A stretch of DNA of 29,033 nucleotides from a virus (Duplodnaviria; Caudoviricetes): positions 1-29,033 of IMG/VR virus record IMGVR_UViG_3300046103_001535. One strand, written 5' to 3'. Below, one piece after another: positions 1 to 16,980 of the stretch (its first letter is position 1; each line of letters starts with the position of its first letter). The translations under genes and the position numbers were made by a program. Under the pieces are notes generated by a model that was not told the DNA's origin, searched no databases, and saw only the letters and a list, made by a program, of their open reading frames with translations.

Positions 1-491
1 CCCGAGCCACCAAAAGTCAGGATCTTATTAGCTCTGCTGGCCGCATATGGCAGCGTCAAATCGGTGTAGGCATCCTGATCATTAAGCCGGATTGTCCTGC
101 CGATACTGGTAACAGCTTCAGCCAAGCTGTTAATTGCTTTTCTTACAAGCCTTGTAACCCGATCAAACGAATCTTCATGGGTGCTAGCAAAAAACGAAGA
201 CTGATTTCCGAACGGCGTCGGCTGCGATGTAGCGAGGTTGTCCGTAATTAAAATAACGAACAGGTTAGCAAGATTGCCTCCCAAAAGCGTGATCGATCCG
301 CCCGCGACATTGCCAACCCCAGTCACCGTGTAGCCCACATTCAGTACCAGCGTGGTAACGAGACTGTTGGTATCCGTGGTTGTGACCAGAAGGTCGGCTT
401 CATCGGTGATCTTAAACTGATAGTCGTAAGTAGCGACACTGCCGTTACCCACCCACTTAGAATACGGTACTTGGTTTGCTGGTATGGTCAT
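1..491 (-). CDS. Tail fibre/tailspike, N-terminal virion-attachment domain (3' end outside window; not in ORF track)
   Basis: ATG at 491 overlaps the TGA of the giant gene (ATGA). The frame is open to the window edge: MTIPANQVPYSKWVGNGSVATYDYQFKITDEADLLV...GYTVTGVGNVAGGSITL...HEDSFDRVT. The GNG..T..Y.F.I, YTVTGVG..GG.IT and HE..FDR motifs are typical of T7 gp17-like podophage fibre N-termini, and the position after the ejection proteins fits. Confidence 0.85.
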   Translation of the reverse strand, partial: MTIPANQVPYSKWVGNGSVATYDYQFKITDEADLLVTTTDTNSLVTTLVLNVGYTVTGVGNVAGGSITLLGGNLANLFVILITDNLATSQPTPFGNQSSFFASTHEDSFDRVTRLVRKAINSLAEAVTSIGRTIRLNDQDAYTDLTLPYAASRANKILTFGGS

Positions 492-3400
492 CGCTTCTTA
501 CCTTTAATTAATGCGTTAACAATGCTTGGGTCTTCTTCCCCGTCATCTGCAGATTGCATCTGCTCCAGGGATCGAGCCACTTGCCCTGATCCCACCATTG
601 GAACCATTGGCTGCAGCGCCCGGATTATCGATGCCACATCAGCCTTGTCAAAAGTTTCCTCTTCATCAGCCAGCTCTGCGACCTCGCCCCCTAATCTTGC
701 CACTCCCGAGATAAAATTGTATGCGGGGATGTTTGGCTTAAAGCCTTTAAGCGCCCCAGCGAAGTTCCTCATCATCATCGATGCACTCAGGCCATAGTCA
801 GCTACGGCGTGGAGCATCCACTTAGCCCAGCCCTCATCGTCATCATCATCAGGCAAACGATCAACTATGAGCTTGCCCACAATCGCGGGAATCAACAAAT
901 ACCACATCATCTCGCGGGTGAATTGAGTCTTGCTAATCTTACCTTTTCTTGCCCTCGACCAGACATCTGCATACAAATTGTAGTTGAAGCCAAAGAACGA
1001 CCCCATAAAGGTTAGCTGCTTGGAGACTTCTGGTCCAACCTGCCTTGCGAAAGTACCGGAACCCTGAAACATTGGTGCCATGTCTTTCTTCTGACCAGAC
1101 CCCATAAGCGCCGCAGTCTCCTGATCCGCATATTCATACGCAGCGAGCTCGATCTCTTCCTTGGTCATACCCGGCTTGGCTACCCTCTCCAGCCCCGTCC
1201 AGTATGAGGCCATCCAAGTGGGATAGGTGCCGATGGCATCACCAATAATCTGCAGAACAAAGCGGCGTTGCTCAATCCAGCCAGCCGCAGCTCGCTTCTC
1301 AAGAACAGCAGACTGCTCCATAACTTCACGATTTATCAGCTTGTTGCGTTCTTGCATGAAGATCGAGCGCTCCTGTACCCACTTGATTGTCTCAATTGGG
1401 TGCAGGGCAAACTCAAGCATAGCCTTCATGGTCTTAACCTCACCATTGCGACCGAATGAGTTGCTTAAAGCCAGAGGCTGCTGAACCATGTTTCTGACCG
1501 ACAGGGTTAGATAGGCGATCGATAGATTGCTACGCACATATCTCATAGCCACGTTGATCGGACCGCCCGCCTCGATATTGCCCTGGAACACCCCAGCAAC
1601 CGTATCCATAAACGACTGGAACTTTTCTTTTCCGTAAGCTTCTAAGATTGCAGACTTAGTCGTTGGGTGATTCAAGAACTTGCTCACCTGGGCGCTGGCT
1701 TCTGCAAACGCTATAAACTGCATTACGTCATCAGCGGCGCGAACTACGTTGCTTACTTCTAGCCTGATTTCGCGGCCACCAGAACCTTGGCGCTCGATCA
1801 TAGCCCCTGTCTTAGACTGCTTTATGCGATCACTCACGTTCATAGTGTTCTGATCGCCCTCATGCATATCCAGCTTCTGCTGGTCTTTCATGCTCCAGTG
1901 ATAATAGATGCGCTGGTATCCGCCGGGCATAACCGTATCCCCAGCCTTGAATGGCACATGGTCAACCTTCATCGGAGCAACGCCAGACAGCACCTGTTGT
2001 ATCCGGGAAGACTCTGCCCAGTACTGCTCGTTGTATGCCCAGATGTCCATGACCAACTGCTTCTGCTCTTCGGTCAGCAGGTTTAGCATTACCTGCACAT
2101 CGTTCTCGGTCAGCGCAACACCCTTGTGTCCGCTTTTCAATATTGCTTCACGGGAGTCAGGCGAACCCCAATAGACTGCCAGCATTACACGCTCGCCGGC
2201 AGACATGGTCATCTTCTCGCCAGCCTCTGTGCGGCGGGTAATGATGCCTTCCTCAAGACTTTCAGACGCTCCTCTGGCGCTTTGGATTCGTTTCTTAGTG
2301 GTGCGAGTAAGCTTGCCGGCAAAAGGAAGGAACATGTCATTGATCTGCTCACTCGCAGCCAGATCCATCTTGGTTCTCTTGTTGGTCGCAGCTATGATCG
2401 GAGCAAGAACATTCCGATACCAAACGCCGTTGGTCTCATAATCATCAAATAGCCTGATGTCAGTTCGCATAGCAATCTGATCTTGAGTTATGCGGCGACC
2501 ATACGACAGCACGGTCTCGTCCCAGGTTCTGTCGTTGATGGTCTCGTTAGGCGCTTTCTTTGTTGTTGAGTTGAGTATTGACTGTGCAGCCTCTTCGGCC
2601 TGAGCGGTGACTGCGGCGTACTCCACATCGCTAAGCTGCTTGCCGACAGACAGAAGATTCTTAACAGCGTCCCTGAGAGCAGCAAGGTCTTCCACGGTCA
2701 TGTTGCGCCAATCCTGAATCTGATCAAGGTAGGCATCGGCTATCAGTCCAGGGTTTGCTTCCGCTTGCCCCTGGATAAACTTGTTTACTTTAGCCAAGCG
2801 TGCCTCAACATCATTTTTGTTGGGTGCCTTGCGTGTATCAAACATAGACAACAGAACCCGAAGCTGGGTTATATACTCAGGGTTGTAACGCTTCGGATCA
2901 CGCTTGGCGGTCTTTTGTTTTGCCAGCCATGCTCTGTGCTTCTCACCCTGCTGACGCTGTATAAGAGATTCTTTGTACAGATAAAATTGTCGCAGCTGCT
3001 TGTGCTTAGCTTCTCGAGCCTGAACCCATTCACCCTTTGCAGAGAATCGTGCAACCTGCCGACCGTACTTTTGTTCTGATGCGAGGTGCTTGCTTGGGTT
3101 GATATCCTTCCACGGCATCGAGGCCACTTCTTGCCTTGCAGCCTCCTTATAAGCTGCAGACTGTACGCGAGGCATCGGCTGCAGCGCCTCTTTGTTGCCA
3201 AGCTTCTGGTTCAGAATATGCAGCTCGAGCACATGGCGCTTGGCTTGCTTGTCGTTATGCACAGCTTCCTGGGCGGCGTCGTATAGCGTGCCGTCACGCT
3301 GCATGTCGCCTTCACGCTCTTTGACTCTAGCCTCGGCTTCAGCCTTAGCTGATGCTGGGCGGTCTTTAGGCTTAATGGCATTTGCCATTGCTATGACAAG

Positions 3401-6400
3401 CTCTTCGCCACTCTTGTATCCGAGAAGAGGTGCTGCTTGATCCGGGTGCATGCCGCCCTTGTTCATCAAGCCTTTAATGCTGGCAGAAACGTCCTCGCCG
3501 TAAATAGCGTTAACTAAATCGCTGTTCAGTTTGAAGTTTGGTATTCCTTCAACGGTGGTTCGGCCTGACAGGAAATCATAAACAACGAGATCCTGACGCT
3601 CTTCCATCTCTTCGGCAATAACCATGCGCTCTTGAGCAACCTCATCCTTCCACCACTTTTCGCGTTCGCGTTGCATCTCTGCCATTGTGGCTGCAGTCAG
3701 CTGTGCATCTGCCTCATCCTCTGCCTCTTGAACAACCCTAAGGTAATCTTCAATCTGCTCTGGCGTAAGACCGAGCCGATCTACTGGCATCGTCTTATAA
3801 TGCTGCTGCTGTTTAGCCTGATCCATCTCGGCTTCGGTAGCCATTAGACGATTCATAACCTCCCGGACTTCGTCCGATAGCTCCGTTCCAGCAAGATTGT
3901 TGCGTGAGAATATGCTTGTGCCTTTCTTATAAATCATTACCAGCCAAGCCTGATACTTGTTAAACACGCTCTGCAGTTCTGCTGTGGGCGCTTTGCCTTC
4001 AAACAAATAATGCTCGAACCCACTGGCAAATTTCTCTTGCACTTCGCGCTTCTGGTCTTGATCAAGGTCTTCGTATCTTTTGCCCTTGTACCCAGCCCAA
4101 CCCATGACGATGTCCAGGTCAGCCTGTATCTCCGGGCTTGCACTTGCGAGGTCGGTGTAGATGGTCAGGAACAGGTGGCCAGACTCATGCAAGAACGTGC
4201 TTAGGTTGGCACGGGGAGTGAGTGTTATCTCACGGGTGCGCGGATTAAAGTAGCCGCGTGGCTGCAGTTTCTTCGGTGCTTTGGCTGGTGGGCCAGCATA
4301 GTCCTTCTGCAAAAATTCGCCCCTAGATTGTAAAATATCACGGTTCGGTTTATCGCGTGATGTCGCATACTTGTTCGGCGACGTTTGATAGACTAAATCC
4401 ACTACCCTTAGGTTTACTTGATTGTCAACATAGTCGTTCAAGAACCTCATCAGGTTTTCGCCGTCACGAGCCTCTTTTGTTTTAACAATCACAGCAGCGG
4501 TGTTGGTTTTATCCATTGCTGCCAGGATGCGCTTGGGCATTCCGTTAGGTATTAACAGCTCGATCTCATCCAACGACATTGGGATCGCACCTATCATTAC
4601 GTTTTTGTTGTCCATCAAGATAATAGCGTTGTCAGACTCAACAGATTTGGCTGCTTTTATCGCGGCTGTTGGATTGTTAACTAAGATTCTCCCCCGAACA
4701 CGCTTAGCAAATACTCGCTCGGTCAGAGATATAGTATTGCGCCTCCCGGCGATCGTAGCTTCAACAACCACCGACCCCCGACCACCCTCCTTATTTATGC
4801 TGGAAGCAAAGAGACCGTCACCAACAACCACATGACCTCTATATTCAATACCGATATGAGAGATTAGCTCTTGGAATTTTTCGGTTACCGCGTAATCATC
4901 AGTACCTTTATCAAGACCGGATGGCGTGCTCACGCCTGAAGGATGATTGTGGCCAAGCCACACGCTTGCAGCGCCGGGTGTTGCTGCAATCGATCCAACC
5001 AACTCAAGGAAGTTAACGCTTGTGCGGTCTTTAAACCCTTTTGTATGGCGGATCAAATGTATAGGCTTGTTGTTCTTGTCCAGAACAAGAATAACCATAG
5101 TCTCTTGGGCGTGCTTACGGAGTGGCGCTAATACATGCGCCACATCTTCAGCAGAGTTTACTTGATCAAGACCTATCGGCAGGGTTGATATCTCGCGATG
5201 CTCCACCCGTATCCTAAAGTTATCTGCAGCCTGTGCTCTTGCTAGGTCTTGGTCGGTGGTGTCGGCTTGATAAAAGACCTCGTCCTCCGCGTACCCGATT
5301 GGGTCTTCACGGACTTCGAGGGTGCCATTTAACGCTGCGGCTTCGGCTTCGCGTTGTTTGAGTTCTTCCCCACTGTACTCTGTGAGGAGTTGCTCGAACG
5401 CAGCCCGCCGACCACGAATCCACGCTTGTAAGCCGGGTGATCCGCTGAAGCTTCTTTCAAGTATCGCCTCCCCGGCAGGGTCTTTCTTCCAATTGTGGTC
5501 ATATCCATACTCTCCTTGAGTCAAAATCACATCGTGATCAATTATTCCTAACTGATCTTTGTGACCATCGAGGAAGTTCTCAATCTCATCAAAGAACACC
5601 TCATCGTCCATGAACGGCACGCCTGTGTCATCATCACGGAAGTTAATAACCGTAACCTCATTGGGTCCGGTTAAGGTCAGCCCAGTATCTTCCCCGAGGA
5701 AAACCTGCATTGATTGTATCATGATGCGCAAGTCATTACGCGATGGATTACCAGAAAAGGTGAAAGCGACACCTCTAGCGTACTTACCGCCCCTGACCTG
5801 AAACTGGCGCTGTGGCTCAGGCTCATCAAACTTCTTTTTAGCCTTTTCAGCCGCGTCCCTGCGCTCTTCCCAGGGAGTATAAAGCTTCAAAAACTCCTCC
5901 TCAAAGGGGGCGTTTTTCTTGTCTGCGAAGGCTTGAGCCTCGACCTGCGTATCAGCTCTGGACTTATTAACCATAGCGCCAGTAGCCAGCTTGATTACTT
6001 TAAACTGCTGTTCTTCTTTAGCTTTCTTGCTGGTAAGCGCCATCGGATCAGCGCGGAACCAAGGCACGGCATTCTGCTTATAGATGTACTGGATAGCCCG
6101 GACGTACCGCCGAACCTCTGAAACACTAAAACCCCCCGCGCCCTTTGTTGGTAGCAGATGACTCAGTGCGTTATTTACAATGTCGCCCTGGTAGCCGCCT
6201 TGAGACTCACGCAAGTATGCGAGCGGAACGCCGAGTAATGCTGCTAGATTATCTTCGCCATCCGCAGAAATCAGTAACTTCATCGCTCGGGCTGTAAATA
6301 GCCTCTGGGTTTCTGGCGACGCATCAAGTATCTCGAGACCAAGGGATCGGCTGGGGATGGCTTCCCAGGAAATAACCTGTGTCATATGTGCGAGGAAATC

Positions 6401-9400
6401 ATCAAAGCTCATTCGGCTTTCTTCTACTGCTGCCGGCACTCGCTCGGTGTCCACCGCCATCGCATGCTTGCGCCAAATAGCCCCATGCTGTCTATTGCCT
6501 TCAGCTGTCGTTGGTCTTTTGTTCTTGCCTTTATCGTCTTTCGTTGCAATGCCTTTCGCAATAGACTCTTCCCACGTCGCAGCCTTAACATCAGGGAACT
6601 CATACCGAGCCTTCATTGAAGACCAAATCATGGCTTGCAGCTGGTGTGGTGTGTATCGATCTTCACCCGGCTGGAGATTCTTATTCATGCGAGCGGTATG
6701 GCGGCGGATATCATTTTCAGAGAACGAGTATCTGCCTGTCCCTGCTACGTCATTGCTGGCCGCATCGCTGGTGTATCCGTATGCACGCAACATCCACATA
6801 TCGATAGTGACAGGCTTATTAAGTTCGTTAATCAAATCCTGATCAAGATCCAGCTGCTCCAGGGCATTTGGTACTGTTGCAAGGATGTGATGCATGAGAT
6901 TCTTGTAGAAAGAATCTGTCTTCCGACCCTCAAAAGGTATTCCATCGTACAGAACCTTGCGGGCTTTGGTGTCTTGCGTGTCGGTCTTTACCTTGAGGTC
7001 TTTCCTTGCAACGCCGTTCTTGTATTGGTTCCACGCCCTAACCGCAAAGTATGTATTGACCTGGACGTTCGATTGAGGCGAGTAAATTGCAATTAGCTGA
7101 ATAATCTTTTCGGCATCACGCACGTTGCCCTGTGCGATCTCAAGAATCCGGCGTGAAGAGTCTTCGTACCAGTAACGACCCGCAGCGCCTTCATCAATTA
7201 GTTGGACGATAGATTTACGCAGCTTGCGAAGACCGCCTCTGGTTTCTGCTCCAGGCGGAACGCCTTTGTACTTGCCGTCTTTATATCGCGGCGGATTCCA
7301 ATTCGCCCACTTCTTCTCTTCCGCAAGATCAGCCTCTGTTGTTTCGTACTTGCCCGTTTCATCGTTTATCTCTGCAGGTACAACAGGATCTGCATCAACA
7401 ATCCCAGAAGCGTTGTCTGTTATAACTGGGTCGCCGTTGATGCTTGTGATTGTGACGGGCTTTGTGCTGAACGTCACAATGTTGGTGCTGCCATCTTCGA
7501 GGTACTTGTTTCCAGGGATTCCCATCCGATCCAGCTCGAGTGAAACGTCCTTTGCAACCATATTGGATGGTTTTACTACTGACCCATTAGGCATGGTTAG
7601 GTTGTAGGTATAGCCAATCTGCTTCTGTGCATCAGCCCCAGTCATGTCTGGCGTGAAGTTGTCATAGCCCGCAATTTTTAGTTTGTTATATACGGTGGGC
7701 TGCTCTTCCAAAGTTTTGTCGAGGTCGATCATCTGATCGATAGCATCGTTATTGATGCTTACTTCGTACAGAACGCCTTCGTTCCGGGGCGTTGTGGCTG
7801 TGTCAATGCGATCTACGATTGACTGCACAACCGCCGGGTTAACCGCCAGCTCTTCACCATCTTGCCCAACCCACTGAACATCTTCCGCGTAAGAAGGAAT
7901 TTCACGCAATGACTCGGCATAGTCTGTGTTGAAGTCAATCATCGGATCATCTGACCAGCGCCGGGCTATTGATTCAACAGTAGTAGTGAGCATAGCCCAC
8001 GCTGTCTCACGCTCGGATGCTGGCAGAGAGAACAAGAAGTCTTCGAGTGTTTGCCCGTTAATACGGGTGGCATTTAACGCTGCTGAAAATCGGCCTGTAG
8101 CGAAGTCTGCATAGAGCTCGCCTTTATCTTTGTTAGTTGCGAAGTTAAGCCCCCAGCCGTGACCGAGAGCGCCAACGCCAGATCCAATGCGAGACATATC
8201 GAACGCATCAAATCCATATGGTGATCCGTGCCACGCTGTTTCGCTTACTTGGTAGGCAGCAGACGGAGCATCCAGACGCGGATCGTCAAGGCGAATGACA
8301 TCGTCCTTGCTTTCGATGTACGCCTCTGGATCGCCCTGATAGCCATCCTCTTCGATGTTGGCATTCTTGAGGTAGACCTCAAGCACTTCGCCCTCGTTCG
8401 CAAATAGAGCAGCAGTTGAAAAATTCTCTGTGAATGCGCCAGCAACTCCGCCGTCCGGGAGTTCGTTAAACTCGGTGAAATCAGATTCTGTTCCGTGATA
8501 CCAGACTCGGCTTATATCAAACCCAAGAGCCTTGGCACGCGCAGCCCGCTCCTCGCGATTCACACGGTATGCGAGGCGGTCTGTTTGGTAGGCGGCAGAT
8601 TCTTCCGCTGTTCCATCAACACCCTTCGCTCCGGTGTCTGCTCCCTCTATGGGTCTGGGTTTGCCCCCCCCGGCCAGAGACTGATAAGTCTGATCATCGA
8701 CTTGCTTTAAAATCGCATCCATCCTCCTAACATTTACACGCCGCGCATTCATCAGTGATTCCTGCACTTTCGTAAGCAGTACGCCCCTTCTCTCTAGTTC
8801 GTCTGCTTTTTGAATAGCACCACCAACAATCTCGTCAATCCGTTTCTTGCCATCTGTTGCCTTTCTCCTAGCAACAGTCATCTCGTCTGGCGAATCTATG
8901 TCTGCTAATCGCTTGTTAATATCGCTATTTTCACGCTCCAACTGGCGATATTCTGCCACCATCGCTGTTCCATCAACACCCTGCGCTCCGGTGTCTGCAT
9001 CAACGGCTAACGGTCGAACCTGTTCTGGCGACAGCGCAACCATTGTTGCTATTTCGCTTCTCTCCAGAATGTCATTCAACAGAACCGCATCATAGCCAGC
9101 GGCCTTTAAGGCATCTCTGACAGCAGGGATATAAACCATGTCGATTGGGTTAGAGCCATCGTAGGGGCTGAAGTTTGAAATATCGTCCGATAAAAAGTCC
9201 CACCCATAGTCGTTAAGAATGTCGCCCTCTATCTGTACATCAGCCCCGGCTGATCTGGCAATCTCCATAAACTCCACGATGCCTTCGCGGGTAGTAATGT
9301 CCAACGGGTTGTTCATTGTTACGTTGTACTCAGCAACCCGTCCACCCCTGTCGCCGGCAAACCATTCCGCTCCAGCTCTGTTGCGGGTTAAAAATGCAGG

Positions 9401-12400
9401 GACATTCAGGCTGCTTTCGTTAGCGCCTGGACCGCCGTGATACCAACCGTCCTGACCAATCGCCTCACCATCACGATGAGTAATAACGGCATCGCGATCA
9501 TCGAACACTACATAGTTTCGGTCGCCTCCACGCCTACTGAGAGCGAACCCATCCCAGAATTTAATACCCCGGATTCCACGGGCTAGCATCCTAGTTGAGA
9601 CCTCTTTGTCATCACCAATAGCATCTGCCATTAGGTAATAGATCTCGCCCCCAGTTAGAGTCTTCCAGCCGTCAATTGGATCGGTCTCTTGCCAAACCAG
9701 TTCATCCTGGCGCTCCTTTTGGTATGCGTTGAAAAGAGTGTAATTTGATTTGCCGGGCAGGTCTTGAGTCCACCAATGCGCGAAGAACTCCTGCACCTCG
9801 GCAGACTGCTCTTCCATGCTTATATCCCAATCCATAGCCGAATCAATCATGCTGTCGGATACTTCAACGGTGTACAGGTGACCAGCAGCTGGGTCGCCAA
9901 CGTGAATAAAGACAGCATCCTTGACCATCTTGCGAAGAGCAAACATCTGCTGTACTGGATAGCCAGCGGACTCTCCGTCTTTTGCTTCTGCATTAGCCTG
10001 AAGCATGTCCATAACTGACTGAGTAAACTCTTCGTTGCCGGCGAGCTCGGTGTATACGGCAGCTGTTTCTATAGTATTAAGAACACCGTTGCTGCCGGCA
10101 TCTGCCGCCCACTCTGCCGCCTCTGTCAACCATTGAGATACATCCTCTGGCCCGTTAATCGTCCCAAGATCATACATCTCGTTCAAACCGTCATCGATCA
10201 GGCCAAAGTAAACGTAATCGGGTGATGCAGTTTTTTGTCCTCCCGACTTCCTGTAGCGTTCGGCAACAGCCAGTGCTTCCGATATGTATATGCCCCAGCC
10301 TTTGTAACTCTTCCCCTCTCCTGAGCGAACTTTGCTCAGGTCAAAGCGTTCAAACAAGTGGCGGGATCCGTGGTATCCGAGCTGCTCATAAACAATGTCT
10401 TGATCGCTATCAGGAGCGCCCGGATTGTTTTTCAATTCGGTTTGTGCGGCCTCATTCTGCTTATCAGTCAGAGGTATTCCGTTAACGCCTGTGATCGATA
10501 GATCGTTATCGCTGAACACGATCAGGTTGCGGTTAGCTTCGCCAGAAGCACGAGAACTACCATCGAGATACTTCATGCCCTTGATGCCGTACTCGGACAG
10601 CATGTACTTCGATGCCATGCGGTTTGGATTGCCGACTACAAAAAGTTCCACCAGCTCTTTATGCTGAGCGTCACTTACTAAGCCCTTCAGCTCCTGAGTT
10701 TTGCGTTGGTGGAAGTCATAAACAGTTTCATTGGGGGCCATCATGTCCCCGGCAATATCAAACTCTTTCATGTATTTATACAGCGTGTCTTCAGCCGCTA
10801 TGACCTGATACTCTTCTGAACCCTCAGCCTCTTCTGATAGCTGGGAGATCAATTGCGCCCACAATTCAAGCCCATTAATCGATTCAAGATCGGCAGTCGG
10901 ACCGAAGACTTCCATCGCCAAAGCTTGAATGGCTTCGCTCTGAACCGATAAATTCGCATCCTGATCAATCATAGTTGCCTGGACTTCAGGGGATACGCTG
11001 ATGTTATACATGAAGCCTTCGGTCTCGACGCTGATCAGACTTGGGTCGAGAGTTCGCATCTCGTCCACAGTTGCCTGATCGACAGTTATCATGTTGTTGC
11101 CAGTAGGGACAAAGTCGTTAACAGCCTTCTGGGCTTCTTTAATAGCAGAGTTCAGCCATTCGGCTGCGTTATCAAAGTCGCCATCGACCCGCTCATCCAA
11201 ATAGAAGTAAGCTTTGTCGCTTATCTTTTGGCCAGCAACCAATACGGGCGAACCTTCATCGGGCAGGAAGGGTTCTGCCTCACTGATATTTTCGGCGGTG
11301 TACCAACCCCAGCCACGATCCTGACCGCCTTGTCCCCGGCTCATGTTTTCGCTATCGAAGCGGGTGAAGTTGAACGGGGACGCATGCCACAGCTCAGCTA
11401 CTTCCTGGGTTGCTGCAACTTCTTCTGCGGTCATTCCGTTTACTGACGTAATCGTCAAAAGGTTTTCATCGAATACGACTAGGTTGCGTGTAGCCATTGT
11501 GTCAATCGCATCTTTGATGCTGTCAACAGTCAATGTGCCATTATTGAGAGCGGGGTATTCCTCAAAAACTGCTGAAAGCGCCTTCTCGTAACTACCTGTC
11601 TCGTTGTAAACCCTTGCCGCTAGATCGGTCGTTGGGCCGCTGCCTTTTGAAGAATAACGGGAACCCCCATCGAAGTACTTGATGCCGGGGATGCCTTTAT
11701 CATTAAGGAACTCGGATGCTTTCTCAGGGCCGAGTCTATTTGCTAGTAGATTGTAAGCGTTTTCGCCATTGGTGTTGCCAAAGACAAACATCTGCTCCGG
11801 GTCAATTATCTTAGCTAACTTGTTGCCTATTGGCTGATCCCAATCAAGCATTCTATCAACCGCTTCGTCTGGGATCTCTACTTCGTATAAGGATCCCTCA
11901 GGTAGTGCATATTTTTCAAATACCGCCTTCTCGTCAGCATTCATCAAATGACCATATTCATCAATCATTCCCCGAATTACTCCGGGGACTGATTGATTCG
12001 GCATTATATCTCCTGGGATGTCGTACTCCTGCATGATTGGCCCAATTTCATCGAAAGCTTCTTCTTCGTCATACCAGGTTGGGGTATCTGGATTGTATAT
12101 GTGAATACTTCCAATCCCCTGCTGGCCTTGCCGAACATAATCACCAGCCACCCCTCTATTCTGAGCCAAGTACAAACCATACCCGAAAGCCTGTGCGCCT
12201 TCACCTGTCCCCATCTTGTCCAAACGGAAACGACCAAGCGGTGCTTCGCGTATGACGGTCGATCCTTCTGGAAGCACATCACCTGACTCCACCCATTGCT
12301 GGGTTCCGTCACTTAACTCTATAAGTGTTTCTGGTGGGAACTTGTACGGTGAACCATGAAACACAGCCTGATCGAATGCTTCCGGGGGCATGTCTGACAA

Positions 12401-14722
12401 AGCCTCGCGAATCTCTTCGTTGCTCATTGTCTCTGGATCAAGACCTGCTGCCTGGAGTAGAGCCTCAACAACCCGCAATTCAGCACGGGCGGTATCGATC
12501 GATGTCGGCTGTGTTGCCGTAGCGGTCTGTGTTTCTGACTGCTCAAGCTTGGCCTCTAGTTCAGAGATATCATTCTGTACTTGCTGTCTCATCTCAGCCA
12601 CCAATTCTTCGGTAGCTTCATCCTGCTCGGTCATCGTTGCGTACTTGCCTTCGTAAGTTCCGGCATCGATAGCATCAAGATCATTGTTGAGCGAACCAAT
12701 CTCTGCCATGATTTGGTCTTTAGAAGACTCAGCGGTCGCAGCCTCCCCAGCTTGCTGCTCCTCAAGCGCAGCGCCCTCCAGGCTGACGTTAGACTCCCCG
12801 GTCTCACCATTGCGGATCTTATTCACAATAGCATCGAACCCAGTAATTGCGTCACGCTGTGAGCGTAGGTTCGGGTCGAGCTCGTTACGAATACTGCCAA
12901 CCTGCTCATCAAACAAGGTCTTGGCTGTTACACCCTCATTGCCGGCGGCACGCATCTTCTTGGCCAATGTGCGGAATACTGCTTCGTACATCATGGCATG
13001 CTGCTCTGATGTGTCGGGAGCATACCCAACACCCTGGAGCCAGCGGTTCATCTCAGAGTAGACTTCAGCTTCGGCAGTCCGCACCTCGACATCCATCGCC
13101 TTAATGTTTTCGATCTCAGCATTAAGGTCTGTTTGTGCCGCCTCGTTCGGAGTCATAGAGTCCAGACCGAGCTTCATGTATGGCTGCAGCGCCGCTTGGT
13201 TTGCTGCGCCGGCAACCTCTACCGCATAGACCTCGATGGGTATCTCAATATAACCGCCGTTCTCGCCCTTTTCTACGAGCTGTTCGGTGATTATCTGTCC
13301 CAGAGGGGTGTCGGCAAGCTCGTTGTCTTCCATGAAGAATACAGCGCCTTCTGGCTCCATATACACAGTTTTTGTGTCAGACTCTTCGCCCATAGCAGCA
13401 ATAGCTTCTTTGAACTTTGCCGGGTTGGTGTCGCGCAATTTGGACTCTGTGAACAACTGCGATGCCCGAGCCATGCGAGCTTGGTCTTCATTGGTCGCAT
13501 CGAGCTGCCGGGATTCCATCACGGTCGATGCGGTAGCACCGCCGCCTGATAGGATCAGACTGCCTTTAAACGCCATCCACGCTTCTTGCGCTACTGCCGA
13601 CGCATCCTTGCCAAACTGCTCAGAATCATAGGGCGTGTCATCGTCTTCGAGAAACTCACGCAACCCTATAACGACAGCCTTCTGTGTACCCTCTTCAATG
13701 GTGTTGTAGGCAATAGCGCCAGCGGCACCTTTCGCATTCTCTTTGGCTATATTAAAAAGACCCTTCTTTTTCAGCTGTTTCGCAATGGCTTTGATGCCCT
13801 CTTTCTCAATCCAATCCTTTACGCCAGGTATTGTGCCAGCAATCTTTTTTGCGCCAATAAACTCAGGCACAACCATAAGGCTGGAGTAGATCAGAGACCC
13901 TGTCATTGCTTGCTCTTCGGTCAAGCCATACTCATCTGATAGATCAGAATAAGCCTCATCGAAAAGCAGCTCCCATGTGCCCTTTGCCATCGCGGTAACC
14001 CCGGCAGCACCGGGCACTACCAACCCAACAGCATCGGAAAAGCTTGGCATGTCTCCATCGCCAAAAACTGCGTTAGCCATCCCACCAGCAGTTTCGCCGG
14101 TCTTCTGTGATGCGTTAAAAAAGTTACGCACACCCATGCCGACCACATCGCCACCCAGATACAATGCCGATGACCAGAATCCAGCCTTATCGTGAGCGGT
14201 CTGATTGTCTTGCCCGTGATCAGACAGGTATTCAAATTCCTTCTGCTCTTTAGCGTTCAGCCCACCATGAAACAATTGCTGAGCGCGTAACTCTGCTTTG
14301 CGCTGTTTGCCCCAGCCGCCAGCCAAACCCTTAGGAATTGCTAATAGGTGAGCCTCGATTGATCCGAGAGTCTCAACATCATCGTGTGCCTGTGCGGCGT
14401 TGTTTTGGTCTGATAGGAACTGAGCAAGTACGGGCGACTTTTCTAGAAGGCTGGTAGTGTTGATTTCTTTGAGCCGATTTTCATTCTTGATATCATCGCG
14501 AACAGGGGCAACAAGTTCGTTCGGAACGCCCGTCTGTTTCGATAGGATATCGTCCTCTGCGGCCTTGGCTGGATCAACCTGGATGCCGTTGCGCAAAGAG
14601 TTGTCTAGCTGTATTTTTCTTGGATCAGAGCCAAGAGGATCAGTTCCCTCGCCTACCAACATTCCCCGATCAAGCATCCGCAGCCGGCGCTTCTGTCGGC
14701 GATCCTCCAGCTCATCGGTCAT
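488..14722 (-). CDS. Giant (4744 aa) internal virion/DNA-ejection protein of polyvalent-protein type (gp16-position), carrying multiple enzymatic cargo domains
   Basis: Uninterrupted 14.2-kb ORF in the last internal-virion-protein slot, between a gp15-like gene and the tail fibre. Contains an LPD22-like N-terminal segment, six HG(S/T)-type ART-like modules, an HhH-GPD-like domain, a RadC/JAB HNHPSG motif and an HESGH zincin motif. Confidence 0.85.
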   Translation of the reverse strand: MTDELEDRRQKRRLRMLDRGMLVGEGTDPLGSDPRKIQLDNSLRNGIQVDPAKAAEDDILSKQTGVPNELVAPVRDDIKNENRLKEINTTSLLEKSPVLAQFLSDQNNAAQAHDDVETLGSIEAHLLAIPKGLAGGWGKQRKAELRAQQLFHGGLNAKEQKEFEYLSDHGQDNQTAHDKAGFWSSALYLGGDVVGMGVRNFFNASQKTGETAGGMANAVFGDGDMPSFSDAVGLVVPGAAGVTAMAKGTWELLFDEAYSDLSDEYGLTEEQAMTGSLIYSSLMVVPEFIGAKKIAGTIPGVKDWIEKEGIKAIAKQLKKKGLFNIAKENAKGAAGAIAYNTIEEGTQKAVVIGLREFLEDDDTPYDSEQFGKDASAVAQEAWMAFKGSLILSGGGATASTVMESRQLDATNEDQARMARASQLFTESKLRDTNPAKFKEAIAAMGEESDTKTVYMEPEGAVFFMEDNELADTPLGQIITEQLVEKGENGGYIEIPIEVYAVEVAGAANQAALQPYMKLGLDSMTPNEAAQTDLNAEIENIKAMDVEVRTAEAEVYSEMNRWLQGVGYAPDTSEQHAMMYEAVFRTLAKKMRAAGNEGVTAKTLFDEQVGSIRNELDPNLRSQRDAITGFDAIVNKIRNGETGESNVSLEGAALEEQQAGEAATAESSKDQIMAEIGSLNNDLDAIDAGTYEGKYATMTEQDEATEELVAEMRQQVQNDISELEAKLEQSETQTATATQPTSIDTARAELRVVEALLQAAGLDPETMSNEEIREALSDMPPEAFDQAVFHGSPYKFPPETLIELSDGTQQWVESGDVLPEGSTVIREAPLGRFRLDKMGTGEGAQAFGYGLYLAQNRGVAGDYVRQGQQGIGSIHIYNPDTPTWYDEEEAFDEIGPIMQEYDIPGDIMPNQSVPGVIRGMIDEYGHLMNADEKAVFEKYALPEGSLYEVEIPDEAVDRMLDWDQPIGNKLAKIIDPEQMFVFGNTNGENAYNLLANRLGPEKASEFLNDKGIPGIKYFDGGSRYSSKGSGPTTDLAARVYNETGSYEKALSAVFEEYPALNNGTLTVDSIKDAIDTMATRNLVVFDENLLTITSVNGMTAEEVAATQEVAELWHASPFNFTRFDSENMSRGQGGQDRGWGWYTAENISEAEPFLPDEGSPVLVAGQKISDKAYFYLDERVDGDFDNAAEWLNSAIKEAQKAVNDFVPTGNNMITVDQATVDEMRTLDPSLISVETEGFMYNISVSPEVQATMIDQDANLSVQSEAIQALAMEVFGPTADLESINGLELWAQLISQLSEEAEGSEEYQVIAAEDTLYKYMKEFDIAGDMMAPNETVYDFHQRKTQELKGLVSDAQHKELVELFVVGNPNRMASKYMLSEYGIKGMKYLDGSSRASGEANRNLIVFSDNDLSITGVNGIPLTDKQNEAAQTELKNNPGAPDSDQDIVYEQLGYHGSRHLFERFDLSKVRSGEGKSYKGWGIYISEALAVAERYRKSGGQKTASPDYVYFGLIDDGLNEMYDLGTINGPEDVSQWLTEAAEWAADAGSNGVLNTIETAAVYTELAGNEEFTQSVMDMLQANAEAKDGESAGYPVQQMFALRKMVKDAVFIHVGDPAAGHLYTVEVSDSMIDSAMDWDISMEEQSAEVQEFFAHWWTQDLPGKSNYTLFNAYQKERQDELVWQETDPIDGWKTLTGGEIYYLMADAIGDDKEVSTRMLARGIRGIKFWDGFALSRRGGDRNYVVFDDRDAVITHRDGEAIGQDGWYHGGPGANESSLNVPAFLTRNRAGAEWFAGDRGGRVAEYNVTMNNPLDITTREGIVEFMEIARSAGADVQIEGDILNDYGWDFLSDDISNFSPYDGSNPIDMVYIPAVRDALKAAGYDAVLLNDILERSEIATMVALSPEQVRPLAVDADTGAQGVDGTAMVAEYRQLERENSDINKRLADIDSPDEMTVARRKATDGKKRIDEIVGGAIQKADELERRGVLLTKVQESLMNARRVNVRRMDAILKQVDDQTYQSLAGGGKPRPIEGADTGAKGVDGTAEESAAYQTDRLAYRVNREERAARAKALGFDISRVWYHGTESDFTEFNELPDGGVAGAFTENFSTAALFANEGEVLEVYLKNANIEEDGYQGDPEAYIESKDDVIRLDDPRLDAPSAAYQVSETAWHGSPYGFDAFDMSRIGSGVGALGHGWGLNFATNKDKGELYADFATGRFSAALNATRINGQTLEDFLFSLPASERETAWAMLTTTVESIARRWSDDPMIDFNTDYAESLREIPSYAEDVQWVGQDGEELAVNPAVVQSIVDRIDTATTPRNEGVLYEVSINNDAIDQMIDLDKTLEEQPTVYNKLKIAGYDNFTPDMTGADAQKQIGYTYNLTMPNGSVVKPSNMVAKDVSLELDRMGIPGNKYLEDGSTNIVTFSTKPVTITSINGDPVITDNASGIVDADPVVPAEINDETGKYETTEADLAEEKKWANWNPPRYKDGKYKGVPPGAETRGGLRKLRKSIVQLIDEGAAGRYWYEDSSRRILEIAQGNVRDAEKIIQLIAIYSPQSNVQVNTYFAVRAWNQYKNGVARKDLKVKTDTQDTKARKVLYDGIPFEGRKTDSFYKNLMHHILATVPNALEQLDLDQDLINELNKPVTIDMWMLRAYGYTSDAASNDVAGTGRYSFSENDIRRHTARMNKNLQPGEDRYTPHQLQAMIWSSMKARYEFPDVKAATWEESIAKGIATKDDKGKNKRPTTAEGNRQHGAIWRKHAMAVDTERVPAAVEESRMSFDDFLAHMTQVISWEAIPSRSLGLEILDASPETQRLFTARAMKLLISADGEDNLAALLGVPLAYLRESQGGYQGDIVNNALSHLLPTKGAGGFSVSEVRRYVRAIQYIYKQNAVPWFRADPMALTSKKAKEEQQFKVIKLATGAMVNKSRADTQVEAQAFADKKNAPFEEEFLKLYTPWEERRDAAEKAKKKFDEPEPQRQFQVRGGKYARGVAFTFSGNPSRNDLRIMIQSMQVFLGEDTGLTLTGPNEVTVINFRDDDTGVPFMDDEVFFDEIENFLDGHKDQLGIIDHDVILTQGEYGYDHNWKKDPAGEAILERSFSGSPGLQAWIRGRRAAFEQLLTEYSGEELKQREAEAAALNGTLEVREDPIGYAEDEVFYQADTTDQDLARAQAADNFRIRVEHREISTLPIGLDQVNSAEDVAHVLAPLRKHAQETMVILVLDKNNKPIHLIRHTKGFKDRTSVNFLELVGSIAATPGAASVWLGHNHPSGVSTPSGLDKGTDDYAVTEKFQELISHIGIEYRGHVVVGDGLFASSINKEGGRGSVVVEATIAGRRNTISLTERVFAKRVRGRILVNNPTAAIKAAKSVESDNAIILMDNKNVMIGAIPMSLDEIELLIPNGMPKRILAAMDKTNTAAVIVKTKEARDGENLMRFLNDYVDNQVNLRVVDLVYQTSPNKYATSRDKPNRDILQSRGEFLQKDYAGPPAKAPKKLQPRGYFNPRTREITLTPRANLSTFLHESGHLFLTIYTDLASASPEIQADLDIVMGWAGYKGKRYEDLDQDQKREVQEKFASGFEHYLFEGKAPTAELQSVFNKYQAWLVMIYKKGTSIFSRNNLAGTELSDEVREVMNRLMATEAEMDQAKQQQHYKTMPVDRLGLTPEQIEDYLRVVQEAEDEADAQLTAATMAEMQREREKWWKDEVAQERMVIAEEMEERQDLVVYDFLSGRTTVEGIPNFKLNSDLVNAIYGEDVSASIKGLMNKGGMHPDQAAPLLGYKSGEELVIAMANAIKPKDRPASAKAEAEARVKEREGDMQRDGTLYDAAQEAVHNDKQAKRHVLELHILNQKLGNKEALQPMPRVQSAAYKEAARQEVASMPWKDINPSKHLASEQKYGRQVARFSAKGEWVQAREAKHKQLRQFYLYKESLIQRQQGEKHRAWLAKQKTAKRDPKRYNPEYITQLRVLLSMFDTRKAPNKNDVEARLAKVNKFIQGQAEANPGLIADAYLDQIQDWRNMTVEDLAALRDAVKNLLSVGKQLSDVEYAAVTAQAEEAAQSILNSTTKKAPNETINDRTWDETVLSYGRRITQDQIAMRTDIRLFDDYETNGVWYRNVLAPIIAATNKRTKMDLAASEQINDMFLPFAGKLTRTTKKRIQSARGASESLEEGIITRRTEAGEKMTMSAGERVMLAVYWGSPDSREAILKSGHKGVALTENDVQVMLNLLTEEQKQLVMDIWAYNEQYWAESSRIQQVLSGVAPMKVDHVPFKAGDTVMPGGYQRIYYHWSMKDQQKLDMHEGDQNTMNVSDRIKQSKTGAMIERQGSGGREIRLEVSNVVRAADDVMQFIAFAEASAQVSKFLNHPTTKSAILEAYGKEKFQSFMDTVAGVFQGNIEAGGPINVAMRYVRSNLSIAYLTLSVRNMVQQPLALSNSFGRNGEVKTMKAMLEFALHPIETIKWVQERSIFMQERNKLINREVMEQSAVLEKRAAAGWIEQRRFVLQIIGDAIGTYPTWMASYWTGLERVAKPGMTKEEIELAAYEYADQETAALMGSGQKKDMAPMFQGSGTFARQVGPEVSKQLTFMGSFFGFNYNLYADVWSRARKGKISKTQFTREMMWYLLIPAIVGKLIVDRLPDDDDDEGWAKWMLHAVADYGLSASMMMRNFAGALKGFKPNIPAYNFISGVARLGGEVAELADEEETFDKADVASIIRALQPMVPMVGSGQVARSLEQMQSADDGEEDPSIVNALIKGKKR
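3830..4262 (-). other. Domain of giant protein: zincin-like HExxH metallopeptidase-fold domain
   Basis: RGYFNP...ITL...ANLSTFLHESGHLFL (4175-4189)...QEKFASGFEHYLFEGKAP. HExxH plus a downstream E (EKFA) that could be the third ligand. Confidence 0.7.
4385..4685 (-). other. Domain of giant protein: second, degenerate JAB-like repeat
   Basis: VNNPTAAI...AIILMDNKNVMIG...TNTAAVIV...LRVVDLV aligns by eye with the RadC scaffold (i.sp..a / l.LD.kn..i / naa.vi / i.llDhi) but lacks the E/HxH residues. Confidence 0.5.
4813..5165 (-). other. Domain of giant protein: RadC-like JAB/MPN domain with intact metal-binding motif
   Basis: VNSAEDVAHVL..LRKHAQETMVILVLDKNNKPI...VWLGHNHPSGVSTPSGLD...HVVVGDG shows the full E...HxH...SxxD JAMM signature (first H about aa 3258). 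Confidence 0.85.
6600..7230 (-). other. Domain of giant protein: HhH-GPD DNA glycosylase-like alpha-helical domain
   Basis: WYE...IAIYSPQSNVQVN...GRKTDSFYKNL...PVTIDMWMLRAYG...YSFSE..I...TPHQLQAMIW. The K after G-R and the D of VTIDMW (about aa 2641) parallel the catalytic Lys and Asp (PVDxW/HxxR) of Nth/Ogg-family enzymes. Confidence 0.5.
7433..8239 (-). other. Domain of giant protein: ART-like module 6 (long type)
   Basis: AWHGSPYGFDAFD (H about aa 2165)...IGSGVGALGHGWGLNFA...LYEVSI...MIDLD...GIPGNKYLE...TNIVTFS...ITSING. Confidence 0.6.
8249..8599. repeat. Pair of 15-bp direct repeats (8249-8263 and 8585-8599), each encoding SAAYQ
   Basis: ttggtaggcagcaga vs ttggtaggcggcaga (14/15), 336 bp apart and in frame, flanking ART-like module 5. 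Confidence 0.7.
8270..8545 (-). other. Domain of giant protein: ART-PolyVal-like module 5 (compact, possibly degenerate)
   Basis: RAKALGFDISRVWYHGTESDFTEF (H about aa 2076)...AFTENFSTAALFA...GEVLEVYLK. The C-terminal half is very short. Confidence 0.55.
8606..8641. repeat. 36-bp direct repeat, copy A (encodes ADTGAKGVDGTA)
   Basis: cgctgttccatcaacacccttcgctccggtgtctgc; 35/36 identical to 8963-8998. Confidence 0.95.
8963..8998. repeat. 36-bp direct repeat, copy B (encodes ADTGAQGVDGTA)
   Basis: cgctgttccatcaacaccctgcgctccggtgtctgc; 357 bp (119 codons) from copy A, same frame. Confidence 0.95.
9010..9448 (-). other. Domain of giant protein: ART-PolyVal-like module 4 (short type)
   Basis: WYHGG (H about aa 1762)...AFLTRNRAGAEWFA...VAEYNVTMNNPLDI...LKAAGYDAVLL...MVALSPEQVR. 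Matches the HG / F.T....A..ya / l...nPl / L...GYDgv / vvf.p.Qi layout of polyvalent-protein ARTs. Confidence 0.65.
9467..10381 (-). other. Domain of giant protein: ART-like module 3 (long type)
   Basis: GYHGSRHLFERFD (H about aa 1451)...SGEGKSYKGWGIYIS...LYTVEV...AMDWD...GIRGIKFWDG...RNYVVFD...ITHRDG. Confidence 0.6.
10478..11395 (-). other. Domain of giant protein: ART-like module 2 (long type)
   Basis: LWHASPFNFTRFD (H about aa 1113)...GQGGQDRGWGWYTA...MYNISV...MIDQD...GIKGMKYLDGSSR...RNLIVFS...ITGVNG. Confidence 0.6.
11436..12367 (-). other. Domain of giant protein: ART-like module 1 (long type)
   Basis: VFHGSPYKF (H about aa 789)...GTGEGAQAFGYGLYLA...LYEVEI...MLDWD...GIPGIKYFDGGSR...RNLVVFD...ITSVNG. 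Confidence 0.6.
13150..13460 (-). other. Domain of giant protein: LPD22-like (large polyvalent protein-associated) segment
   Basis: SKLRDTNPAKFKEAI...TVYMEPE...ITEQLVEKGENGGYIEIPIEVY resembles the recalled LPD22 pattern (skl.er.p..f.efi...vyid...eql......g.di.ip...y). Recognition only; boundaries approximate. Confidence 0.55.
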
Positions 14723-16378
14723 CTAATACCCCTTCCTGTGTACATATTCTTCAATTATGTAGTTGGTTGTCGTAGGTGAACCTTCCGCGGCAAGCTCTGT
14801 GATTATGTCTTCCAATTCATCTACAGGAATACTATTAATGTTAACGTCAAGATCCCCCGACAGCATATCGATACCGAACAGTGTGGTTACTTGGTTGTAT
14901 TCCCAGAAAACTTCAGCTGCGAACTTGCGTGAAACGTCATCGGGAACATTCCCATACCGTTTGTTATCGGGATTTAACTCCCAAGCGGCAACTTTGTCGG
15001 CATACATGCCGTACAATATATTCTTGCGAATACCCCAATCATCGTAACTCTTTGTATTTTTGGAAGCCCTTGGCCCAAGGTACTCCTTCACGCCATCATT
15101 AAAATGCATGAGAGGTGTCTTCATTGGTCTTTTCTGCCCCGGAGCTACTTTATTCGCCATGTTGAAGAACAAATCCTGATCGTTCCTCGATAATTTACCC
15201 GCACTTTTCTTGATTGCATCAGCAATGTTTTGCTTTGTATATGATGGGTCGCTTAGCATTCCCATTACCTCCCAACGGGTTTTCTGATCTGACTCAACAA
15301 GATTACCCGCGCCACCCATTATCATTTTTAGAGACGCTGGATCAGATTCTATTTTTGACCATTCCTCAGCGCCAAGCTCATCGCGAACCTGCAACCATGA
15401 CTTTTCTGGATGCTCTGCCATGTTTTGAATAACCCGACCAACCGAAAGATTAACAGCATCGGCTTTTGCGGACTTTTCGACGGCAAAGTCATGGTCGATC
15501 TGACTCAATGCCAGCTTCAATGGCTCGCCCTCTAGGTCGCGGCGAGCAGCTGCGCGGCGTTCCATTAGATTAAGAGGCTTGCCAACAAGTTCTGCTGAAT
15601 ACTTCTGCGACACTTCAAGGTCAGCAGAGGAGTTAACCTTGAGGCTTAGCTCAGACCTCTGTTCGGGCAGAATCTCGGTTCCCCATCGATCGAGGTAAGC
15701 AGCTGCGCCTTCGGTGTTCTTGTTGTTCAGTAATACACCGATCGCGGACTGATGAGCGGCAGACACAGCCGCTTCGACAGCAACCTCGCGTGCATCTTCC
15801 GGGAGTCCCATCATGTTGGCTTTATCAGTGGTGTTCCTAATAATCTGATCAATATAAGGCTGAGGCTCGCTGCTGAATCGAGCAACGTCTTCTTGAGCCT
15901 GAATGACAGCGGCATCGTAGATAGTCCCCTGATACACCTTGCGCTGCTCAGCCGCATGGGATGCGGTTGTTTGGTTCTCGCGCTGCAAGTACTGATTGGT
16001 CGTTGACATGTACTTGCCAGCTTGCGGTCCAGGCAACAGGCTTTTGCCAACTTCATTACGCATCTTTTCTACGTTTCTTATGTAGTTGTCTCGGGCTTCG
16101 TAGGTTGCGTTGCCGCCCTGAAGGTTCTGAAAGCCATCCTCGGCTTCACCCATAGCGGTCAGTCTTTTCCTGAACTCAAGCTCACTAGCATCTGAGGCCA
16201 TCTTGTCATCAGCGGCCTTCATGCGAAAAGTAACGTCATTCATCTTTCGGCTTGCTGATGTTAGTCCTGCACCAAGCCCAGCACCAAACGCATCCGCTCC
16301 AGGGTTAACCCTTATGGAAACGTCAGGCAGACCTTGCTGCTGTACTTGACTGGTGTTGTACTCTGGAACTTTGGGCAT
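14723..16378 (-). CDS. Internal virion/ejection protein (T7 gp15-position)
   Basis: 551 aa, helical and Ala/Gln/Glu-rich. N-terminus MPKVPEY...AFGAGLGAGL is typical of this slot. AAGGA RBS upstream; lies between the gp14-like gene and the giant gene. Confidence 0.7.
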   Translation of the reverse strand: MPKVPEYNTSQVQQQGLPDVSIRVNPGADAFGAGLGAGLTSASRKMNDVTFRMKAADDKMASDASELEFRKRLTAMGEAEDGFQNLQGGNATYEARDNYIRNVEKMRNEVGKSLLPGPQAGKYMSTTNQYLQRENQTTASHAAEQRKVYQGTIYDAAVIQAQEDVARFSSEPQPYIDQIIRNTTDKANMMGLPEDAREVAVEAAVSAAHQSAIGVLLNNKNTEGAAAYLDRWGTEILPEQRSELSLKVNSSADLEVSQKYSAELVGKPLNLMERRAAARRDLEGEPLKLALSQIDHDFAVEKSAKADAVNLSVGRVIQNMAEHPEKSWLQVRDELGAEEWSKIESDPASLKMIMGGAGNLVESDQKTRWEVMGMLSDPSYTKQNIADAIKKSAGKLSRNDQDLFFNMANKVAPGQKRPMKTPLMHFNDGVKEYLGPRASKNTKSYDDWGIRKNILYGMYADKVAAWELNPDNKRYGNVPDDVSRKFAAEVFWEYNQVTTLFGIDMLSGDLDVNINSIPVDELEDIITELAAEGSPTTTNYIIEEYVHRKGY

Positions 16379-16413
16379 GCCTTGTCCTTAGTAATCAGGG
16401 ATAATTAAATGGC

Positions 16414-16977: not shown

Positions 16978-16980
16978 AAT

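Follow-up and report, generated by a model that had tools for sequence, protein, structure and literature searches.

What is a marine podophage doing with a protein of 4744 residues at the place where its relatives encode a likely ejection protein? The question is raised by a single open reading frame (ORF; 488..14722 on the minus strand, 526 kDa, zero cysteine) in the window, by which we mean the whole 29,033-nt stretch of DNA analysed, itself a whole assembly. A preliminary description made from the sequence had recognised one ORF, about half of the window, in a gp16-like slot; both ORF and slot hold, and the strand is added here. Our analysis leads us to consider it probable, at roughly 0.7, that the phage packs this protein as its largest ejection protein and ejects it along with the genome, and that its own peptidase cuts it at [LFY]-x-Q joints, freeing modules that would probably act early against host defence.

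The integrity of so long a reading frame comes first. Its ATG adjoins the stop of the upstream gene, with an AGGAAGG ribosome-binding-like stretch present. Parts of the stretch occur in 24 runs from seawater and sea ice, eight of which contain at least half of it, and contigs of four other runs span all module junctions with no insertion or deletion listed (for example X2 1-5847 and 5846-8876, X3 4434-9026, X4 8787-10582 and 10740-11552, X3 11509-12452); this support consists of contigs rather than raw reads, the 2024 runs may be one campaign, and uncovered bins in single runs were given no evidential weight. A chimeric assembly, which the preliminary description had named as fatal to its own reading, is very unlikely and already largely refuted: the whole stretch is not spanned by any single listed contig, but overlapping contigs bridge each junction mostly at 99%+ identity, the close relative P0003 is colinear with the 4744-aa protein over aa 2461-4744, and GC is flat (0.49-0.52). 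Twelve same-strand alternative-frame ORFs lie inside the region of the giant ORF, for which we claim no overprinted gene.

Table 1. Features of the giant ORF and its neighbours (positions in the window; all on the minus strand)
Feature	Position	Strand	Remarks
Tail fibre/spike gene start, downstream	3..491	-	cut by window end; PHROGs tail fibre N-terminus E 1e-28
Giant ORF	488..14722	-	Bbp10/IVP-D-slot polyvalent protein; phrog_9880 E 4e-194; Bbp10 25% over 1250 aa, E 7e-69
C-terminal conserved helical part	488..3922	-	aa 3601-4744; IVP-D-like scaffold
Zincin metallopeptidase (MPTase)	3923..4264	-	HESGH at aa 3512, third-ligand Glu helix at aa 3563; FLQ before
JAB-like partner domain 2	4355..4714	-	aa 3337-3456; no metal ligands; after JAB1 in 4 other proteins
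RadC-type JAB domain 1	4787..5170	-	aa 3185-3312; FYQ before; E...HxH-x7-S-x2-D intact; RadC E 7e-18
Second ferredoxin-like domain	5510..5803	-	aa 2974-3071; travels with HhH module
Ferredoxin-like domain	6047..6379	-	aa 2782-2892; partial SAM-lyase signature: G-x-[WYF], Q-[DE]; no Glu69 equivalent
DUF7178, HhH-GPD glycosylase-like domain	6443..7330	-	aa 2465-2760; Pfam E 1e-9; Lys2601, Asp2641
Long ART-like module 4	7409..8233	-	aa 2164-2438; strand-2 Tyr to Asn, possibly inactive
Short, minimal ART-like module 2	8249..8575	-	aa 2050-2158; between two SAAYQ motifs; Pfam E 4e-5
Helical module	8606..8998	-	bracketed by 36-nt direct repeat
Short ART-like module 1	9008..9439	-	aa 1762-1905; Pfam E 0.002; own ART-PolyVal profile E 4e-7
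Long ART-like module 3	9443..10390	-	aa 1445-1760; YEQ before; Pfam ART-PolyVal E 9e-5
Long ART-like module 2	10457..11389	-	aa 1112-1422; H-A-S replaces H-G-S
Long ART-like module 1	11417..12361	-	aa 788-1102; FDQ before
N-terminal conserved part, helical/coiled	12362..14722	-	aa 1-787; 37-38% to P0003 and P0002
LPD22	14351-14599	-	aa 42-124; Pfam E 3e-15
Upstream context	14723..20494	-	nozzle (920 aa), gp13-like GNAT, 96-aa ORF, gp14-like internal virion protein, 551-aa Bbp11-like protein

Gene slot, scaffold and exchangeable middle

The giant ORF lies in a full podophage structural block, between the 551-aa Bbp11-like gene and the tail-fibre gene, with terminase, portal, scaffold/protease, an epsilon15/BPP-1-type major capsid, Bbp16 cement, adaptor, nozzle, gp13-like, gp14-like and Bbp11-like genes upstream. 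This gene order is that of BPP-1, Carin1, T7 and epsilon15, and it places the ORF in the IVP-D slot, after the nozzle and IVP-A/B/C and before the fibre; as expected of polyvalent proteins, it is encoded among late virion genes. The neighbourhood recurs among 65 complete relatives, with a nozzle gene upstream in 58 and a gp14-like gene upstream in 44. The nozzle of the window (17732-20494) exceeds its PHROG profile by about 200 aa and carries an E1_FCCH-like insert (aa 702-744; Pfam E 9e-11) plus similar repeated inserts.

Both ends of the protein are conserved. Residues 230-640 are matched in 41 of 83 loci, a set made up of the best 80 of 569 relatives confirmed by a viral scan and three further loci. 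The other end has a single stretch of moderate hydrophobicity, near aa 4605. Its final 1260 aa are matched at 22-35% identity by 49 annotated phage records, BPP-1 Bbp10 and Carin1 gp32 among them, and 33 of these cover at least 80% of the query. Bbp10 is listed as an IVP-D homologue in Table 2 of Hardies 2016 (PMC4819975), a paper that also has IVPs bring passenger domains into the cytoplasm. Because direct tests of the scaffold profile are weak (hhalign E 0.05 against the T7 gp16 single sequence, on one short motif; E 0.39 against the epsilon15 gp17 single sequence; no match to PDB sequences), the IVP-D link rests on that published HMM work. PDB sequence searches with the whole protein or with the scaffold, ART or HhH profiles gave nothing significant, and the profile scores of cyanophage A4 gp27 (E 0.41) and gp26 (E 0.014) were not accepted as evidence of a relation to the scaffold. 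Another Bbp10-like protein, OANV1 gp16, has 2986 aa (PMC9239159). The scaffold also occurs, together with a long ART module, in BK063671.1, a virus record labelled as having an archaeal host (Methanomicrobiales).

The C-terminal part had been described as apparently structural; it begins with an HExxH zincin peptidase that had been missed. The peptidase motifs (HExxH and the downstream Glu helix) are complete in 67 of 107 family proteins and the anchor is present in 78 of them; residues 700-1000 of Bbp10 have been used as a zincin seed (PMC3650047). In three relatives (P0010, P0011, P0013) an inserted module interrupts the peptidase region just downstream of the HExxH helix.

Between these ends lies a variable part, aa 788-3465 (nt 4328-12361), which starts at aa 788 because aa 641-787 are common to the two closest relatives. 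The preliminary description was thus right about a middle made of modules and wrong about its limits (about 4290-12800, about 2,800 aa), and the comparison that it had proposed, of conserved ends around a variable middle, came out as predicted both against P0003 and P0002 and across the 83 loci. These two nearest relatives (4234 and 3182 aa; 60% identity in the C-terminal part) group with the giant protein in a quick tree (SH-aLRT 100). P0003 shares aa 27-783 and 2461-4744, but where the ART array would stand it has 1147 unrelated residues; P0002 contains a single ART and lacks a JAB, and other scaffold relatives carry PBECR, SNF2 helicase, GGDEF, SLT, GNAT or ParB. Thus orthologues differ in architecture, and unrelated domains share one chain (LPD22, ART-PolyVal, DUF7178 and RadC above Pfam cut-offs, with an HExxH peptidase), as in polyvalent proteins.

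Several of these replacements have features of their own. The payload of P0003 (aa 826-1972) has no Pfam match and includes a large module with an EEMQADLHQ..GRKAGY motif; two stretches of P0003, about 1530-1680 and 1690-1820, look like ARTs by eye. In P0002 a small domain with an HEGRHR motif (aa 1750-1920; ParB-like by eye) replaces the JAB pair between the HhH unit and the peptidase. Individual relatives (P0017, P0020, P0024, P0016, P0010, P0022) join the same scaffold to GGDEF, SNF2 helicase, SLT, GNAT, DdrB-ParB or MuF-C.

The giant ORF is the longest among the scaffold relatives retrieved. For the 65 complete relative ORFs from IMG/VR, drawn from the best 80 of 569 and the three further loci, the median length is 2223 aa (range 1327-3771), and a length-restricted search added 23 of 2658-4403 aa; the giant ORF nevertheless sets no record for its class, one HhH carrier having 5052 aa. 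As to payload, the 83 loci (again the best 80 of 569 plus three) show long ART matches in 8-11, a JAB in one and the HhH module in none, and 88 complete relatives, by our own profiles, have at most three ART starts each and none in 56, against four long and two short in the giant ORF. A 59-row quick tree does not demonstrate repeated gain of the HhH module: the HhH label needs seven changes, well-supported branches force only one, and the HhH rows were enriched by our own search.

Predicted folds and active sites of the modules

Six ART-like modules had been described, and six starts are found (long, aa 788, 1112, 1450 and 2164; short, about aa 1762 and 2075), the four long ones being related; the two short ones alone, however, fall below the curated Pfam cut-off (E 0.002 and 4e-5). 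Taken whole, the protein scores 62 bits against ART-PolyVal (PF18760; cut-off 31.2). Internal repeats escape self-BLAST and are detected by windowed phmmer. The long copies form a conserved family marked by the motifs H-G-S, G-x-Y, G-I-x-G-x-K-Y-x-D and R-N-x-V-V-F; their identity to copy 3 is a mere 22-27%, but all core motifs and the frame are kept, which suggests long selection. This combination argues against the view that duplicated modules accumulated at a permissive site, where they are tolerated and largely neutral, which we hold to be highly improbable even though the short ARTs are apparently absent from a close strain (X20; see below) and most complete relatives do without any ART.

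The ART fold itself was modelled on copy 3, alone among the six. The model (mean pLDDT 67) has a confident core and uncertain helical inserts, and the core is of the PARP/diphtheria-toxin type. Its best fold match (VIA, 48,161 chains) is 9K3A_B residues 1420-1604 (Z 11.1, rmsd 4.6, 160 aligned); next come tankyrase (Z 8.8, rmsd 3.8 over 122) and, at Z 6-9, the ART cores of PARP and toxin type. Foldseek on the PDB returned no match at E<=0.001 for this model or for that of the HhH unit. Among 50,697 phage records, tblastn found two matches to the long ART and none to the HhH module.

9K3A represents cyanophage A4's pre-ejectosome (PMC12002296), and its chain B, present in five copies, is by its numbering A4 gp27 (L086:20116-25269, P0198, 1717 aa). 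Residues 1420-1604 of gp27 show an ART-like YHGT..GxYF..GxDA pattern and went undetected by sequence profiles. Because gp27 is not a scaffold relative and was not detected by sequence profiles, we treat it as a fold-level precedent only. The terms ADP, ribosyl, NAD and PARP are absent from the main text of PMC12002296, and ADP and ribosyl from one of its supplements, figure images lying outside this scope. Directly before the ART-like fold, aa 1320-1400 of gp27 look ParB-like by eye, with no Pfam match.

In the ART modules the NAD-binding His is invariant in the long copies and present in all six, and the Tyr is found in long copies 1-3 and lost in copy 4. On the last strand, at a position assigned by motif analogy, 17 of 17 aligned long ARTs have Asn rather than the Asp/Glu of characterised H-Y-D/E enzymes; a conserved Asp (KY[LF]D) follows strand 4. 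NAD+ transferase activity of the long ARTs is uncertain because of this replacement, and so is the earlier proposal of enzymes acting on NAD+. Long ART 1 has a 34-aa insertion (12216-12315) directly after its first ART His motif, overlapped by an alternative-frame ORF of 92-102 codons (12004-12312).

The HhH-GPD-like module of the preliminary description is borne out by the model of the 650-aa DUF7178 unit (pLDDT 92, pTM 0.88) and by fold search: the first 300 residues match 3N0U (VIA; Z 9.5, rmsd 3.5, 171 aligned), and about 15 further HhH-GPD entries, together with a queuine salvage enzyme, stand in the top 50. Helical folds can score high by chance; the matches of DUF7178, however, are to one family. 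Lys2601 is conserved in 159 of 159 aligned rows and Asp2641 in 158 of 159, as expected of the HhH Lys and catalytic Asp, and by motif we take them to be equivalent to the EndoIII residues. HhH-GPD folds in phages also act as DNA amino-acid transferases, and base modification is therefore an alternative to excision. DUF7178 is widespread (864 representatives at E<=0.001), and 137 of the 158 carriers examined exceed 1500 aa, 39 of the 158 having the scaffold of the giant protein.

The matches of the two ferredoxin-like domains that follow include phage SAM lyases of the Svi3-3 / T3 SAMase kind (6ZM9, Z 6.3, rmsd 3.9, 121 of 129; 7OCK_L, Z 6.2, rmsd 3.3, 126 of 152), but unrelated ferredoxin folds score equally well; in the ESM Atlas the two had only unnamed matches, at 0.81. 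SAM lyases strictly conserve Gly56, Glu69 and Gln104, and the Glu is needed (PMC7877911). By motif mapping, the first ferredoxin-like domain has the Gly in 148 of 156 and the Gln in 151 of 155, with a Glu at the expected columns in at most 5 of 156; since this conserved Glu is missing, we term the domain SAM-lyase-like rather than a member.

As for the two JAB-like modules described earlier, JAB1 is confirmed by its RadC match and JAB2 is weaker. The nearest named clusters of JAB2 in the ESM Atlas are RadC (0.77-0.78), which is a lead only; it has no RadC profile match, its HMM tests were negative, and profile tests of JAB1 against JAB2 did no better than reversed controls. RadC-type JABs have been argued to be without the ubiquitin-tail groove (PMC5512222, section 16), and JAB2 is without metal ligands, so that action on protein conjugates, which the preliminary description had thought possible, and ubiquitin-like deconjugation in particular, are unlikely.

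Joints between modules and the proposed delivery

A short motif recurs where modules begin. Of the 65 non-redundant members, 55 have [LFY]-x-Q no more than 25 residues ahead of the peptidase (background 0.19, shuffled 0.22), often with Gly next (21 of 55); for this count the anchor was present in 76 of 107 proteins. The motif also lies no more than 40 residues ahead of 24 of the 33 ART starts (background 0.30-0.32). Nominal p-values exaggerate the enrichment because the members are related. Flanking residues vary widely between members. In the giant protein the strict motif precedes four of about ten modules (ART 1, ART 3, JAB1 and the peptidase), other joints read AYQ, TYQ, IGQ or ATQ, and the HhH unit has no motif before it. 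We suggest [LFY]-x-Q as a candidate cleavage or recombination joint.

The DNA bears its own marks at joints. The 36-nt direct repeat around the helical module (8606-8641 and 8963-8998) is 35/36 identical with a spacing of 357 nt, or 119 codons, and the module has no homologue among the proteins collected. In run X20, a close strain, one contig skips 8263-8570 in frame (102 codons, short ART 2), within five codons of two SAAYQ motifs, and one skips 9000-9457 in frame (152 codons, short ART 1); with a depth of about 4, sides of 55 and 32 letters and the letters between unread, these skips hint at module loss or replacement. Joints and indels from a distant depth-27.9 contig (X9/X12), and an out-of-frame joint at 11696-12143 (side 22), were set aside as other organisms. 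A 34-nt near copy of the 36-nt repeat occurs with unrelated flanks in another contig, in four runs, and the X20/X22 strains diverge exactly at the repeat.

We propose that a Bbp10-type scaffold with conserved ends carries a swappable middle of enzyme-like modules, and that the protein would be packed in the head and ejected into the bacterium together with the genome. Packaging and ejection are likely, judging from homologues and the literature: for H66 gp60, a podophage polyvalent protein of 3787 aa by coordinates, the record note gives virion presence as 'verified by mass spectrometry', and phi24B gp47 (2811 aa) was found in virions according to a preprint. A few copies of a 526-kDa protein would, we infer, fill much head space. 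Once inside, the protein's own metallopeptidase may cut the chain at the [LFY]-x-Q joints, as their position and conservation suggest, and the modules so freed would probably counter host defence within the first minutes, the ART folds through NAD+-dependent modification or binding, HhH-GPD through base excision or DNA-base chemistry, and RadC through nucleic-acid processing. What counts against cleavage is N4 vRNAP, which has an MPTase yet is packaged unprocessed (PMC5512222, section 8).

That precedent also suits an account in which packaging and ejection do take place, most modules being tethered, non-catalytic binders or decoys for NAD+, ADP-ribose, DNA or host defence proteins, [LFY]-x-Q being a structural or recombination joint instead of a cut site. 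The last-strand Asn of the long ARTs and the lost Tyr of copy 4, the ligand-free JAB2, the SAM-lyase-like domain without a Glu69 equivalent, and the DNA-level repeats and in-frame skips at joints all fit such an account. We nonetheless regard it as unlikely, since the HhH Lys/Asp, the JAB1 metal motif and the HExxH+E are intact and strongly conserved, and the long ARTs keep their invariant NAD-binding His.

Conversely, the chain could be cut during assembly, with only the conserved ends entering the virion and the modules acting at a late stage in the cell that makes the phage, on progeny DNA for instance or against superinfection. For P1 DdrB, cleavage comes before packaging (PMC5512222, section 8), and the late structural operon and the size of 526 kDa would accord with the same course here. 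Against it, an ART-fold domain is resolved inside the A4 pre-ejectosome, and H66 gp60 and phi24B gp47 are found in virions, an observation on these proteins rather than on their middle regions; we judge it quite improbable. Delivery of the whole chain followed by cleavage at the joints is the reading that we prefer, and a bolder form of it, possible in our view if on balance doubtful, would make Bbp10-type proteins self-processing polyproteins in which each cargo opens with [LFY]-x-Q as swap joint and zincin cut site, so that about ten separate anti-defence enzymes would be injected, among them ARTs of an undescribed H-Y-N family and a fusion of HhH-GPD and SAM-lyase-like parts that acts on modified DNA. 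If true, nature would have provided in this scaffold a programmable chassis for delivering proteins into bacteria.

Relation to known systems

The concept put forward in the preliminary description is already published, in Iyer 2017 (PMC5512222), Hardies 2016 (PMC4819975) and a 2022 NAD+-ADPr survey. Iyer 2017 sets out the polyvalent-protein concept, proposes injection with DNA and MPTase autoproteolysis, inventories LPD22, ART-PolyVal, RadC and MPTase, and cites a prophage protein with 12 ART copies; 'glycosylase' is not mentioned in it. The literature searched gave no description of the [LFY]-x-Q joint or cleavage motif (the passages of Iyer 2017 covered included), of DUF7178 as an HhH-GPD fused to a SAM-lyase-like fold ('DUF7178' gave no result) or of a podophage ejection protein with an ADP-ribosyltransferase; most subscription papers and the Iyer supplements were outside its scope and may record the first two. 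Similarly, no prior report placing the long ART's best match inside the A4 pre-ejectosome was found in literature searched mostly without subscription papers.

The polyvalent-protein idea is thus known but almost untested, and the giant protein and its relatives make it testable in BPP-1, Carin1 and cyanophage A4. Three points lend themselves to experiment: whether, and at which position, the peptidase of a polyvalent protein cleaves the chain that it belongs to, the motif offering a concrete site; the role of ART-PolyVal domains, one of which now seems to lie in a solved pre-ejectosome; and the substrate of the widespread DUF7178 module. If the proposed delivery is true, podophages would bring in a large, fast-changing enzyme kit before transcription, which bears on host range and on engineered protein delivery.

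Set beside known systems, the giant protein resembles the polyvalent proteins of Iyer 2017 in joining many disparate domains in one chain within a virion gene block, and differs from what the passages covered describe in that the ARTs are given there as H-Y-D, whereas its long family reads H-Y-N, and RadC is listed as conjugative-type (section 33). The DUF7178 unit shares a predicted fold and an invariant Lys and Asp with HhH-GPD glycosylases (3N0U, 1KEA, 2ABK), and it resembles phage SAM lyases (6ZM9, 7OCK) in the Gly, aromatic and Gln of the lyase signature and, tentatively, in predicted fold, but at 7-11% identity, as a fused 650-aa unit inside giant proteins and with the Glu69 equivalent missing. 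A4 gp27 is likewise an ejection protein, and its residues 1420-1604 are the best structural match of the long ART module, but it has another scaffold, 1717 aa, one ART-like domain and no detectable sequence similarity to the giant protein. The giant podophage internal proteins N4 gp50 (the virion RNA polymerase), H66 gp60 and phi24B gp47 are found in virions with cytoplasmic passengers, which in their case are an RNA polymerase, a methylase-type domain or LPD/MuF-C and not an ART array with HhH-GPD and JAB. The IVP-D epsilon15 group (Bbp10, Carin1 gp32) has the same slot, an N-terminal LPD22, a peptidase followed by a 1250-aa C-terminal part at 25-27% identity, and passengers to be expected; Bbp10 has 2052 aa and Carin1 gp32 2854 aa, with PBECR passengers, against 4744 aa and about 11 modules here. 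The giant protein is an extreme case of a known design.
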